The notes beneath the pieces were generated by a model that saw only the letters and a program-made list of their open reading frames with translations, was not told the origin of the DNA and searched no databases. This document shows, one piece after another, positions 47,612 through 61,138 of a DNA stretch of 64,000 nucleotides (position 1 is its first letter; each line of letters begins with the position of its first letter). The translations under genes and the position numbers were made by a program. The DNA comes from Candidatus Jordarchaeia archaeon (GTDB lineage: Archaea > Asgardarchaeota > Jordiarchaeia > Jordiarchaeales > Jordiarchaeaceae), in the NCBI GenBank assembly GCA_029856435.1, contig JAHQXB010000063.1, positions 1 through 64,000 of the forward strand. The letters run 5' to 3'.

Positions 47612-48982
47612 ATGACACAAACGCAAAAAGGAGAAAAATTTGAAGTCAAAGACCTAAAACTAGCACCAAGCGGACGAGCAACAATTGAGTGGGCAGAATC
47701 AAGAATGCCCGTGCTCATGCAAATAAGAGAGAGGTTCCGAAAAGAAAAACCGCTTAAAAACACCATAGTAGGAGCATGCCTCCATGTAACAAAAGAAACA
47801 GCAGTTCTTGCAAAAACCCTGAAAGCTGGAGGTGCAGAAGTCTACCTCTGTGCCTCAAACCCCCTATCAACACAGGACCATGTAGCCGCCGCACTGGTAG
47901 AAGAAGGAATAAACACATTCGCCTGGAAAGGCATGGACTACGAAGGCTACTACCGAGCAATAGCCAACGTTATTAAGGGAGAACCGAACATCACACTAGA
48001 CGACGGCGCCGACCTAGTATCAACCTTAATCAAACTCAAAAGAGGAGAAACCGGCGAGGAAATCAAGGTAGTTAAGAAAATTCTTGGAAGCCGAACAGAC
48101 TGGGCGGACAAAGTATGGGCCGGAGCCGAGGAGACCACAACGGGCGTAATCCGCCTTAGAGCCATGGCAAAAGATAACGTGCTACTATACCCAATTATAG
48201 CTACAAATGATACCCCCACAAAATGGGAAACATAAACACCCCCCGTGTTTAAGCCCAAATTTGACAACCTGTGGGGAACTGGGCAAAGCACCATAGACGG
48301 CATACTGAGAGCAACAGCAGACCTTATCGCGGGCAAAATTTTTGTAGTCGCAGGGTATGGCCATTGCGGTAGAGGCGTAGCGCTAAGAGCTAAGGGGCTA
48401 GGAGCGAGAAGAGTCATCATATGCGAGATAAATCCACATCGAGCCTTAACAGCCGCCTTAGAGGGTATGGAAGTAATGCCCATGAGGGAAGCCGCAGAGG
48501 TGGGAGACATTTTCGTAACCGCCACAGGATGCAAGAACGTCATAAATGCAGAACATATGAAAAAGATGAAAAACGGAGCAGTGATGTGTAACACAGGTCA
48601 CTTTAATGTGGAAATAAATATACCTGACTTGGAGAAAATCAGCGTTAGCAAGAGAGAGATAAGACCACTAGTCGATGAGTACACACTGGAGGATGGAAGA
48701 AAAATCTACCTACTAGCCCAAGGCAGGCTTGTGAATCTAGCATGTGCTGAGGGACACCCAAGCGAAGTTATGGACATGAGCTTTTCTGATCAGGCTTTAG
48801 CTGTGGAGTGGATTGTTAAGAATAGGGATAAGCTGTCTGGGATGGGTAGTGTGGTTTTGGATATTCCTGAAGAGATTGATAGGACTGTTGCAGAATTGAA
48901 GTGTAAGGCTATGGGTCTTAGATTAGATGTTTTGACCCCTGAGCAGGAAGCTTATTTGTCGGGCTGGGCTGAAGGAACCTAG
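47612..48982 (+). CDS. ahcY: S-adenosylhomocysteine hydrolase, intron-containing (exons 47612-48229 and 48260-48982; 446 aa)
   Basis: [30 protein letters not shown], spliced [37 protein letters not shown]. Confidence 0.95.
48230..48259 (+). other. 30-nt BHB intron in ahcY (contains in-frame TAA)
   Basis: TGGG-AAA-[CATAAACAC ccccc GTGTTTAAG]-CCCA-AAT. Confidence 0.92.
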
Positions 48983-49663: not shown

Positions 49664-50782
49664 ATGGATACTGAGGAAAAGGTTCAGCGTGTCTTGCGTG
49701 GCTTGAGTGAGGTTATTACTGTTGAGGATTTGCGCAATTTGTTTGAGGTAGATAACCACCCTAAGGCTTACATAGGTGTTGAGCCTTCTGGATAAACCTT
49801 TTAGGCTTTCTAGGGTTCCAGAATATTTCATTTGGGCTGGGTGGTTTGGGCCTGGAAGGTTCAGGATTTGGTTCTTTGTGATGTGGATATGCATGTTCTC
49901 GAAGCGACTTGGCATGCTAAGATTAATGACAAGTTTGGTGGAAACATGGATACCATACACACCTGTGCAAAGTATATTGAGCACTGTTTACAAGCGTTGG
50001 GTGTAGATATTGGTAGGGTTCGTTTTCCAAAGGCTGAGGATCTTATGGATAGTTTGGATTATTGGGCCACAGTGATAAACATTGCTAAAAACACTACGCT
50101 GGCACGTATTAAGAGAGCTATGAGTATTATGGGCCGCAAAGTAGACGATGCTGAATCGGATTATTCAAAAACGCTTTATCCTTGCATACAAGTGGCTGAC
50201 ATCTTATATGCTGGTTTTAAGCTGTGTCTGGGTGGGACTGACCAGAGAAGAGCTCACATATTGGCGAGGGAGTTGGCTCCTAAGTTCGGCTTGGATTGGA
50301 AGCCGGTAGCGATTCACACTCCTCTCCTCATAGGCTTGGAGGGATTATCGAGGATGGAGGTTGAAGGTGTGAATGAGGATGTTTTAATGGAGGCCAAGAT
50401 GTCGAAATCCAAACCTCAAACAGCAATTTTTATACATGATAAGCCAGAGGAAATCAGGAGTAAAATCTCTGCTGCCTTTTGCCCACCTAAACAGGTAGAA
50501 TTCAATCCAATAATTGAAATAAATAGGCTTCTTCTTTTTTCCAGAGAAGGTTTCATTCTTCATGTGGAACGTGAGGAAAAATTTGGAGGGGATGTAGATT
50601 TTGAGAGCTTTGATGAATTGAAATCTGCCTACAGCGCCGGTAATCTCCATCCTCTGGACTTGAAACGGGCTACTGCAGAGGCACTCATTGCACTGCTGAA
50701 AAATGTTAGACAACATTTTGAAAAGAATAGTGAAGCCCGTAACCTTTTAGAAACATTAAAAAAGGCTACAGTGACCCGGTAA
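49664..50782 (+). CDS. tyrS: Tyrosyl-tRNA synthetase, intron-containing (exons 49664-49793 and 49824-50782; 362 aa)
   Basis: Spliced KAYIGVEPSGLFHLGW, YPCIQVADI, GGTDQRRAH, KMSKS, LHPLDLK. Confidence 0.95.
49794..49823 (+). other. 30-nt BHB intron in tyrS HIGH-motif region (creates in-frame TAA)
   Basis: CTGG-ATA-[AACCT..GGGTT stem-loop]-CCAG-AAT. Confidence 0.92.
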
Positions 50783-58918: not shown

Positions 58919-59971
58919 ATGTATCTAGAAAACTCTTTAATTTTGGTGAAGCTTTTGCTAAAGGAAACAATGATTTACGAGAAGCTTGAAAATGACATGG
59001 TAAAATGCGGGATCTGTCCTCATCGCTGTTTAATTAAACCCGGAAAGAGAGGAAAATGTAAAACAAGAGAAAACAGAGAGGGGGTTCTCTACTCCCTTGT
59101 TTATTCTTCAATATCTGCGATGGCTAATGATCCCATTGAGAAAAAACCTCTGTTCCACTTTTATCCGGGTAGCACTGCCTTTTCTATATCAACAGTGGGT
59201 TGTACTTTTCATTGTCTCCACTGCCAAAACTGGAGCATCTCTCAAGCAGAGCCCGAATCTGGCTTAACTAGGGAGTTCCCACCAGAAGAGATTGTTTCAG
59301 CAGCTAAGAGAAGTGGTAGCCGTTCCATTGCATATACCTATAATGAGCCCTTCGTTTTCTACGAATTCGTCTATGATACTGCAAAGATTGCAAAGGAAAA
59401 CAACATAAAAAATATTCTGGTTACAAATGGATATGCTACACCTGAGGCCATAGAAAAAATAGCCCCTTTAATAGATGCAGCAAACATTGATGTGAAAGCA
59501 ATGAGCGAAGAATTTTACAAAGAAGTATGTGGGGCGCGGCTTCAACCAGTCTTAGACGCCGTGCTCCTCATGAAGGAGAAGGGCATTCATGTAGAAATTA
59601 CGTATCTGATAATCCCCCAGAAAAATGATAGTGCAGAGGAAATAAAGAGATTTGTAGAATGGGTTAAGGGTAATTTGGGACTGGATATACCCATCCATTT
59701 CTCAAGGTTTTATCCCCATTACAAAATGACAAATCTTAATCCCACCCCAGTTCAAACAGTCATTAAAGCCAGAGAAATCGGGCAAAAAGCAGGGCTGCAC
59801 TACGTCTATTGCGGGAATATACCGGGGCAGGGAGAGAACACGTATTGCTACAATTGTAACCAATTAATAGTGGGACGATGGGGATACTCAATAGAAGAGT
59901 ACAAACTTGCCAAAGGCAACACGTGCCCAAACTGCGGAACGAAGATAAACATGATTGGAGGAGGGGGATAG
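58919..59971 (+). CDS. AmmeMemoRadiSam-type radical SAM enzyme (start probably 58955-58970)
   Basis: CGICPHRC, DPIEKKPLFHFYPG, GCTFHCLHCQNW, YTYNEP, HFSRFYP. Confidence 0.9.
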   Translation: MYLENSLILVKLLLKETMIYEKLENDMVKCGICPHRCLIKPGKRGKCKTRENREGVLYSLVYSSISAMANDPIEKKPLFHFYPGSTAFSISTVGCTFHCLHCQNWSISQAEPESGLTREFPPEEIVSAAKRSGSRSIAYTYNEPFVFYEFVYDTAKIAKENNIKNILVTNGYATPEAIEKIAPLIDAANIDVKAMSEEFYKEVCGARLQPVLDAVLLMKEKGIHVEITYLIIPQKNDSAEEIKRFVEWVKGNLGLDIPIHFSRFYPHYKMTNLNPTPVQTVIKAREIGQKAGLHYVYCGNIPGQGENTYCYNCNQLIVGRWGYSIEEYKLAKGNTCPNCGTKINMIGGGG

Positions 59972-59988: not shown

Positions 59989-61138
59989 TTAGGATACTGG
60001 ACGCCAGATAATTCCTAGTTCATCCGCTGTTTTGTATGCTTCCTCCATTTCGTGGCTAGTAACCCTTCTACATATGTCTGCATATTCCTTCCTTCTTGGC
60101 ACCTCGTGTGTTGGGTGATACTGTTCCATTATGTTAACTAAAGCCTTGGGGCAATTTTTAGCCACCCATTCAAGAACCGGTTTGGTGCAACACTCAATGT
60201 GTCCCGGTAAAACTAGGTGCCTTATTATCATGCCAGATGTTCCTGGTTCCACAGTTTCATCATAGGCCATTTTATGATTTCTTGAAACAATTTCCCAGTA
60301 ATTAGAAACTTTACTCAACCTTTCTGCGCATTGATCATTCCCATATTTAAAGTCGGGGAGCCAGAAATCCATAACGTCTAATAAAAGCTTCATACATTCT
60401 TTGGAACAGTACATATTAGAATTCCATAGTTGTACAATGTTTGTTTTAGTTTCCCTTACGCCCTTTAAAATGTTGTAGGTGTTTGGAGTTGGTTCTCCAC
60501 CCACATAATTTATGTTTCTTGCACCTTCCCTCTTTAGATCTCTTGAGATTCGTGCAAGGCTCTCACCCGAAGTTTCTATACCGTTTTTTGGATTTGTGGA
60601 AATGTCATAGTTCTGACAAAACACGCATTTAAAAGTGCAACTGGAGAAGAAGAATGCACCGTAAGAGCCTTAACTCTTAAGCGTTTGTGCCTGAAGGAAC
60701 TAAAGGGGCCTCTTCTCCAGTATGTATGAATGCTGAGGATACATAAGACTCTCTGCCAAGTTTACAAAATCCTTTTTCACCCTCCAGTCTATTAGCCCCA
60801 CACCGTCTTTCACAGAAATGACACTGCGATAGAATCCTTCTTGCTAGTTCCACCTTAGCATCTAAATAAGAAATCTTCGGCGAATCAATGTTTCCCAGAT
60901 CCAGTTCACCTGCATCAATCCGCCTCAAGACACTCCTAAAAACACCACTTATTCTATCATGCTCATCCCAAAGCTTGCCCAGCTCCGCATCTAGCTCAAC
61001 ATCTACACCTACTTTTAAAGCTATCATAAACTTAGCATAAAGCCTATCATTGAATACCTCATAGTACCTCCAAAGCCTCTCACGAACTGTACCGTCATCC
61101 CAAACACGGTAAGCATCTGGGCGAATTAGCTTCCACAT
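59989..61138 (-). CDS. PflX-like radical SAM protein, intron-containing (exons 61138-60685 and 60653-59989; 372 aa)
   Basis: CHFCERRCGANR, spliced HTGEEAPLVPSGTIFFSSCTFKCVFCQNYDIS, VGGEPTP, PDFKYGND, RHLVLPGH. Confidence 0.92.
60654..60684 (-). other. 31-nt BHB intron in pflX-like gene
   Basis: GCAC-AAA-[CGCTTAAGAG ttaagg CTCTTACG]-GTGC-ATT. Confidence 0.92.

Follow-up and report, generated by a model that had tools for sequence, protein, structure and literature searches.

The window analysed here is the whole stretch of 64,000 nt, positions 1 to 64,000 of contig JAHQXB010000063.1 (assembly GCA_029856435.1, Candidatus Jordarchaeia archaeon). On its minus strand lies a PflX-like radical S-adenosylmethionine (SAM) gene that is interrupted at 60684..60654 by 31 nt, just 5′ of the CxxxCxxC motif. 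The insert is very probably a real bulge-helix-bulge (BHB) intron of the archaeal type, carried by the pre-mRNA of this gene, with a probability of about 0.88, and its splicing is predicted from the features described below. The host belongs to the Asgard archaea (Jordarchaeales/Freyarchaeia). The window and related genomes directly show the insert, how it folds and how it is conserved, and the features are listed in Table 1.

The exon-1 frame opens with the ATG at 61138 and reads ...EEAPLVPSGT-N-A before it is stopped by a TAA at 60680-60678. The exon-2 frame is shut upstream by a TAA at 60672-60670, i.e., it is closed until 60669, and shows no ATG, GTG or TTG between this stop and the first Cys codon. 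The two open frames do not overlap, so a simple frameshift cannot join the exons. Excising 60684..60654 fuses GGC ACA A to UC UUC UUC, which gives PSGT-I-FFSSC and a gene of 372 codons; the predicted spliced joint is GGCACAA / TCTTCTTC and the predicted junction peptide is VPSGTIFFSSCTFK. The 31-nt frameshifting insert before CxxxCxxC, first proposed in an initial annotation of this DNA, is borne out by these frames and coordinates. The exon-1 product is a Cys-rich N-terminal domain that aligns with residues 1-151 of uninterrupted orthologues and matched no Pfam family in a profile search, while exon 2 matches Pfam Radical_SAM (2.5e-13) and also Fer4_12. The conceptual spliced product has 372 aa, compared with 366-383 aa in the orthologues, which appear in some sources as 'putative pyruvate formate lyase activating enzyme'. 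The Radical_SAM domain, the CxxxCxxC motif and the architecture of ~370 aa are all present in the host gene, and no NCBIfam equivalog attains its cut-off.

Table 1. Coordinates of the interrupted radical-SAM gene and of its predicted BHB motif in the 64,000-nt window
Feature	Position	Strand	Description
Exon 1	60685..61138	-	151 codons (M...PLVPSGT) + first base A of Ile codon
BHB-type intron (predicted)	60654..60684	-	31 nt, ACGCUUAAGAGUUAAGGCUCUUACGGUGCAU; holds stop codons of both flanking frames
Exon 2	59989..60653	-	UC completing Ile codon AUC, then 220 codons + stop; radical-SAM core, begins FFSSCTFKCVFCQN
CxxxCxxC [4Fe-4S]/SAM motif (CTFKCVFC)	60616..60639	-	begins 5 codons 3′ of the splice junction
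Central helix H, 5′ strand GCAC	60687..60690	-	exonic, Gly-Thr codons GGC ACA; pairs with 60659-60656
5′ bulge AAA	60684..60686	-	predicted cut between 60685 and 60684
Inner helix h′ + loop	60660..60683	-	CG, 2-nt bulge CU, UAAGAGU, loop UAAG, GCUCUUA, CG
Central helix H, 3′ strand GUGC	60656..60659	-	intronic; invariant, 13/13 aligned sequences
3′ bulge AUU	60653..60655	-	predicted cut between 60654 and 60653
Outer helix h, 3′ strand CU	60651..60652	-	pairs with AG 60692-60691; 2 bp
Exon-1 segment, GEE codons	60709..60721	-	ACUGGAGAAGAGG; can pair 13 bp with exon-2 60652-60640, directly 3′ of the 3′ bulge

Uninterrupted orthologues from Asgard archaea, Thermoproteota and Archaeoglobi (n = 54) carry exactly one codon between the Thr and FF residues, and this codon specifies Ile in 49 of 50 distinct uninterrupted sequences. 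A junction GCACAA/TCTTCT that restores a conserved Ile, as had been anticipated, matches this single-codon spacing. The 9-nt 'inserts' of Thermoproteota orthologues are ordinary in-frame coding sequence, adding three residues.

The core of the motif reads GCAC-AAA...GUGC-AUU, and the GCAC/GUGC helix, the AAA/AUU bulges and the TAAGAG/CTCTTA stem of the earlier description are all present. In the crenarchaeal cbf5 intron each bulge is predicted to be cut between its second and third residues (PMC2738675), and the same rule applied here gives the junction ACA-A/UC, restoring Ile. The motif fits the relaxed HBh′ class. In the local fold, the minimum free energy (MFE) structure and the centroid are identical and correspond exactly to H, a 3-nt bulge and the hairpin. 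Strict BHB motifs occur in this genome at ~3.7e-5 per position and length (10,813 matches over 7.08 million strand positions and 41 lengths), a filter that the window gene's own h′, with its 2-nt bulge, would fail and that the h′ of its relatives would pass. Only one position and one length bring back the orthologue spacing, and the motif has both; in relatives it recurs with other sequences.

Among 11 Jordarchaeales genomes examined, ten possess the gene, and all ten carry an insert at the identical nucleotide (site 1). The records of site-1 carriers (n = 15, from Jordarchaeales and Helarchaeales) contain inserts of 27, 28, 31, 32 and 33 nt. The 31-nt form occurs in the genus of the window, one species of which is 90% identical and differs in the interior of the insert; 28 nt is found in the family Jordarchaeaceae and one further contig, 32 nt in one contig, and 27 nt in one genus. 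This last form is in frame and contains a TGA, as do both of the in-frame versions seen among carriers. A coding loop was rejected, as inserts of 27-33 nt either have stops or shift the frame, and the orthologue alignment suggested with the initial annotation showed an insert that is non-coding, variable in length, stop-containing and structurally covarying. At every insert length, a cut after the second bulge nucleotide yields ACA-AUC-UUY (T-I-F); all relatives have AUU or AAU as the 3′ bulge, and the cut following its second nucleotide produces AUC each time.

Pairing was counted in an alignment of 13 sequences, with slid pairing partners as controls. In total, 91% of the alignment cells were paired, compared with 35-55% in the slid controls. 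Helix H is paired in 100% of cells (13/13 sequences), with a single C-to-U change that yields a G-U pair, and every bulge measures 3 nt. Across the relatives, compensatory changes on both sides are seen at six of the eight h′ pairs, and nine of ten local MFE folds of carriers consist of H, a 3-nt bulge and h′. The outer helix h retains a G:C pair in 13/13 sequences and a second pair (A:U or G:U) in 10/13.

A longer context of 96 nt folds with a z-score of -3.5 and forms a 13-bp exon-exon helix, in which the GEE codons pair with the FF-SS codons. This helix might replace h, but it is not adjacent on the 5′ strand. Any role of it in splicing would be conjectural, since GAR/UUY complementarity is also present in intron-less orthologues.

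Ratios of nonsynonymous to synonymous substitution rates (dN/dS) were 0.02-0.16 for both exons in Jordarchaeales pairs with estimable dS. Exon 1 gave 0.05-0.16 where dS was estimable, and exon 2 gave 0.036 in the sole Jordarchaeales pair with unsaturated dS. Proportions of nonsynonymous (pN) and synonymous (pS) differences were 0.06-0.10 versus 0.67-0.85 in deeper pairs for exon 2, and 0.06-0.29 versus a saturated 0.67-0.87 in Jordarchaeales pairs beyond the closest; between carriers overall, pS was 0.6-0.87 in every pair but the closest. By these measures both exons are under strong purifying selection, and the low dN/dS in both argues that the gene is not decaying. The synonymous positions at the motif are themselves frozen: in carriers, the third base of the Gly codon is C or U, that of Thr is A and that of Ile is C (each 10/10), while the same states occur in only 21/50 (Gly), 11/50 (Thr) and 14/50 (Ile) non-carriers. 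Judged from the codon comparison, this is a signature of RNA-level constraint on the exon bases.

The window's genome contains, on C104 and C64, two EndA-family open reading frames (ORFs) of 192 and 197 aa, each with an N-terminal and a catalytic domain. One of the paralogues is closest to the crenarchaeal chains 3p1z_B, 3ajv_B and 2zyz_B, and we infer that the two form an (alpha-beta)2 tetramer. A single RtcB match (579 bits) lies at C93:302-1636 on the minus strand of the window's genome. This match contains one internal TGA. A splicing endonuclease suited to relaxed motifs and an RNA ligase are both encoded. Transfer RNA (tRNA) genes with introns, often several and at non-canonical positions, make up 92-95% of all tRNA genes in Freyarchaeia and Atabeyarchaeia (PMC11291895), and Freyrarchaeaceae and Jordiarchaeaceae rank first and second for tRNA interruptions (preprint, bioRxiv 10.64898/2026.10.13.758758); reports of introns in protein genes are absent from both of these sources.

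If the insert is spliced by this machinery, then the transcript would fold so that the exonic GCAC pairs with the intronic GUGC, with 3-nt bulges, an intronic hairpin and a short outer helix. A two-subunit EndA of the crenarchaeal alpha-beta type would cut after the second nucleotide of each bulge, RtcB would ligate ...GGC ACA A to UC UUC UUC..., and the 31-nt intron would be released, probably as a circle. We infer both the cutting enzyme and the circular form of the product from the anatomy, the comparative pattern and known BHB biochemistry. The 372-aa enzyme, in which the Ile and the CxxxCxxC region are intact, would be encoded by the spliced mRNA only; without splicing, translation would meet a stop two codons into the intron and give a 153-aa fragment that lacks the catalytic core.

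Several observations weigh against a spliced intron. The case for splicing is built on anatomy, comparison and known BHB biochemistry; three public runs mapped to the locus gave no spliced read, contig or junction. The only clear RNA among them (run X3) covers 60759-61006 and ends short of the intron, and the contigs of a 95%-identical relative from runs X1 and X2, which carry a metatranscriptomic label and a 'probably DNA' flag, retain the insert. The MFE fold of the 96-nt context lacks helix H. The outer helix h is only 1-2 bp, making the motif relaxed rather than a strict hBHBh′ motif, and in the window gene a 2-nt bulge and a single mismatch interrupt h′. Nor do the relatives count as independent samples, as the carriers represent two clades. 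Separately from these points, scanning metagenome contigs for the spliced junction, in its Freyarchaeaceae and Jordarchaeaceae forms, returned 0 and 0 matches. A search of 5.8 billion proteins for a full-length close relative, of the kind that an assembled spliced transcript would yield, found none above 75% identity, all matches above that level being fragments of 182-233 aa.

In a split-gene reading, the insert would mark a fission point, and the 153-aa N-terminal domain and the radical-SAM core would be made as two polypeptides that assemble, with no splicing at all. Public records do call the gene as two ORFs (e.g., 153 aa + 233 or 230 aa), and in two variants (L104 and L012) the exon-2 frame offers a TTG or ATG 5′ of the motif. 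The other 11 of the 13 variants, including that of the window, have no start codon in this frame before the Cys motif, and a separately translated exon 2 would consequently lose Cys1-Cys2 of CxxxCxxC. A split gene of this kind also leaves the covarying BHB geometry and the frozen synonymous sites unexplained, and is judged very unlikely. The stops in both frames, and the annotation pipelines that split or shorten the gene, could point to a pseudogene, inactivated by a small insertion and now decaying. Against this, both halves are under purifying selection while synonymous sites are saturated, the catalytic motifs are all intact, and the insert is kept by 10/10 gene-bearing Jordarchaeales, which span two families, and by three genera from another order; decay is an extremely improbable explanation.

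Translational recoding would have the ribosome shift frame or hop over the insert, aided by the hairpin. Bypassing in T4 gene 60 involves signals that include a stable hairpin and a stop codon immediately after the take-off region, and by analogy the hairpin and stop found here may resemble them. A plus-or-minus-1 shift is ruled out by the frames, which do not overlap. A hop would begin and end at mismatched codons (ACA versus GCA/UUC) and would have to vary from 27 to 33 nt among relatives, in which the conserved feature is a 4-bp helix with 3-nt bulges; recoding is accordingly given very little credence. It is also conceivable that EndA cuts the BHB without religation, making it a regulatory, mRNA-destroying site, and EndA does have non-intron substrates, namely rRNA precursors and a Haloferax 5′-untranslated region (5′-UTR) element (PMC7714728). 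Without ligation no functional enzyme could ever be made, whereas exon 2 shows strong conservation and the frame is restored precisely by the cut sites at five insert lengths, so that cleavage alone appears highly unlikely. The source assembly consists of 181 contigs with an estimated contamination of 5.7%, which might raise the question of an assembly or sequencing artefact. The insert, identical or diverged, occurs in independent assemblies of different studies, including the closed chromosome CP147778.1 (SRVP19_Freyarchaeia-1), which has the same intron at 1863944-1863974 and the overall topology of which was checked with long reads (PMC11291895), and it occurs also in contigs of two further public runs; an artefact is barely credible. 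A group I or group II self-splicing intron was rejected, the insert having 31 nt compared with the hundreds of nt of a ribozyme core. Rfam searches gave nothing at gathering score in the whole window, and nothing at E up to 1 for 60400-60950.

The predicted BHB intron is the same in kind as the cbf5 intron, and what is new is the host gene, its occurrence in Asgard archaea, and the evidence of recurrent gain. The BHB intron of cbf5 pre-mRNA is known from Crenarchaeota, in the Desulfurococcales and Sulfolobales (Watanabe 2002, Yoshinari 2006, Yokobori 2009 = PMC2738675). In both genes a small insert (33-39 bp for the four cbf5 sizes) lies at a catalytic motif within the coding sequence, the BHB is relaxed with predicted cuts between the second and third bulge residues, presence or absence follows lineage, and the hosts have a hetero-oligomeric EndA (presumed here). 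The present case differs in the gene (PflX-like radical SAM), in the phylum (Asgard) and in that splicing is predicted, and also in that Asgard lineages differ in which of two sites is interrupted, one site being occupied in two orders. The tRNA introns of Freyarchaeia/Jordarchaeia and Atabeyarchaeia share the host lineage, the motif type and the presumed use of EndA and RtcB with the insert, but reside in tRNA genes. In the case of the 5′-UTR BHB intron of Haloferax volcanii HVO_1309 (PMC7714728), in vitro work confirmed that the splicing endonuclease acts on an mRNA, as it is predicted to do here; unlike the insert described here, the HVO_1309 intron is untranslated, interrupts no frame and belongs to a euryarchaeal host.

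A survey of 301 sampled Asgard genomes gave 231 with a match to the gene, and among these, interruptions beside the Cys motif are confined to three groups: Jordarchaeales, one Helarchaeales family and an Odinarchaeia-like genus. The Helarchaeales family (f30) carries the intron at the identical nucleotide in 3/3 genera (28, 33 and 28 nt in G302, G301 and G296, respectively), with H and the bulges as in Jordarchaeales and an unrelated inner helix (GAAUUGAA.../...UUCAAUUC); its sibling families f28 and f31 are without the site-1 intron. The Odinarchaeia-like genus (genomes of 1.3-1.4 Mb) also lacks the site-1 intron in 4/4 genomes, and has instead a 29-nt BHB-shaped insert eight codons 3′ of site 1, inside CxxxCxxC (site 2; GCGU-AUA-hairpin-ACGC-ACU). 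This insert was read in three genomes (G011, G022 and G032), the fourth being very similar at the site, and the same cut rule restores CTFRCAY/CQN. Three other candidate interruptions were discarded. A frame change of ~1 nt after ...CQNHDIST in G305 (C170, Helarchaeales order) is without BHB shape and probably stems from an assembly error or from a genuine shift of frame, and the short open frames in G058 and G125 are contig ends.

In the gene tree, site-1 carriers are monophyletic in 0% of bootstrap trees, the Helarchaeales carriers not being grouped with Jordarchaeales. An approximately unbiased (AU) test of their monophyly gave p = 0.04, a weak result because the group was defined after seeing a tree. 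The site-1 intron may have been gained twice at the same nucleotide, may be a single old intron that was lost several times, or may have spread by transfer. As far as the sequences indicate, introns entered the gene on at least two, and probably three, occasions. The site-1 introns of Jordarchaeales, the introns at the same nucleotide in Helarchaeales, site 2, and a cbf5 insert at the crenarchaeal codon position (described below) suggest, tentatively, that BHB introns are actively and repeatedly gained in Asgard protein genes at 'proto-splice' sites, the exon supplying half of the motif. This broader proposal is possible but doubtful.

The searchable literature documents a BHB intron within a coding sequence for cbf5 only, together with the one Haloferax 5′-UTR case. 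The radical-SAM gene would be a second, unrelated gene with such an intron, and in Asgard archaea, which among prokaryotes are the closest relatives of eukaryotes. The pattern of presence and absence, the recurrence in two orders and the second site make archaeal intron gain, and the dependence of mRNA on tRNA splicing, testable with existing samples. If repeated gain were true, then the closest prokaryotic relatives of eukaryotes would have an ongoing gain of mRNA introns based on protein enzymes, and many core enzymes could be expressed only with the help of the tRNA-splicing machinery. Pipelines call the gene as two fragments or truncated ORFs, and metabolic reconstructions of Jordarchaeia/Freyarchaeia would therefore wrongly score such genes as broken.

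The insertion had initially been described as gene-specific. This holds relative to the neighbouring convergent gene (58919..59971), an uninterrupted 350-aa AmmeMemoRadiSam radical-SAM gene that is intron-free as had been noted, but not genome-wide, as similar mini-introns are found in cbf5, pcm, hypD (partial support), tyrS and ahcY (the last two by eye). A genome-wide scan for BHB motifs that restore an ORF gave 75 strict matches, compared with 67-84 for decoys with wrong bulge sizes; as decoys match as often, the ORF test alone is not specific, and Pfam continuity across the junction was required. The cbf5 gene (C73:22783-22813, minus strand) carries a 31-nt BHB-shaped insert, CACU-AGA...AGUG-AAA, with Pfam continuity across the junction (DKCLD before; TruB_N, TruB_C_2 and PUA after). 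It splits the codon of the catalytic Asp as G/AU (HAGTLD/PKVTG), which is the published codon position of the crenarchaeal cbf5 intron (PMC2738675). A 32-nt BHB-shaped insert in pcm (C109:12093-12124, minus strand) separates positions 3-59 of the PCMT profile, before the junction, from positions 61-208 after it. A 28-nt insert in hypD (C136:1384-1411, minus strand; VHICGT/HEQTI) has partial support, only the downstream part being matched (profile 29-351).

Two further 30-nt, stop-containing inserts lie within the window, both on the plus strand. One is in tyrS (49793-49822; CUGG-AUA...CCAG-AAU), where the cut gives EPSG-LFHLG, and the other is in ahcY (48230-48259; UGGG-AAA...CCCA-AAU), where it gives TKWE-FDN, both read by eye. 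Each has a 4-bp helix, 3-nt bulges and a cut after bulge nucleotide 2. The three intron interiors of the window share no sequence, which argues that they are not copies of one element. ARAGORN predicted no tRNA gene in the window, although heavily interrupted tRNA genes may escape standard tools. Most of the inserts examined sit in highly conserved catalytic motifs: CxxxCxxC, the EPSG/HLG region of tyrS, TKxxFDN, the catalytic Asp of Cbf5 and a CGxH-like stretch of HypD. This bias may reflect either the need for an invariant exon to stabilise half of the BHB, or an observation bias toward broken motifs.
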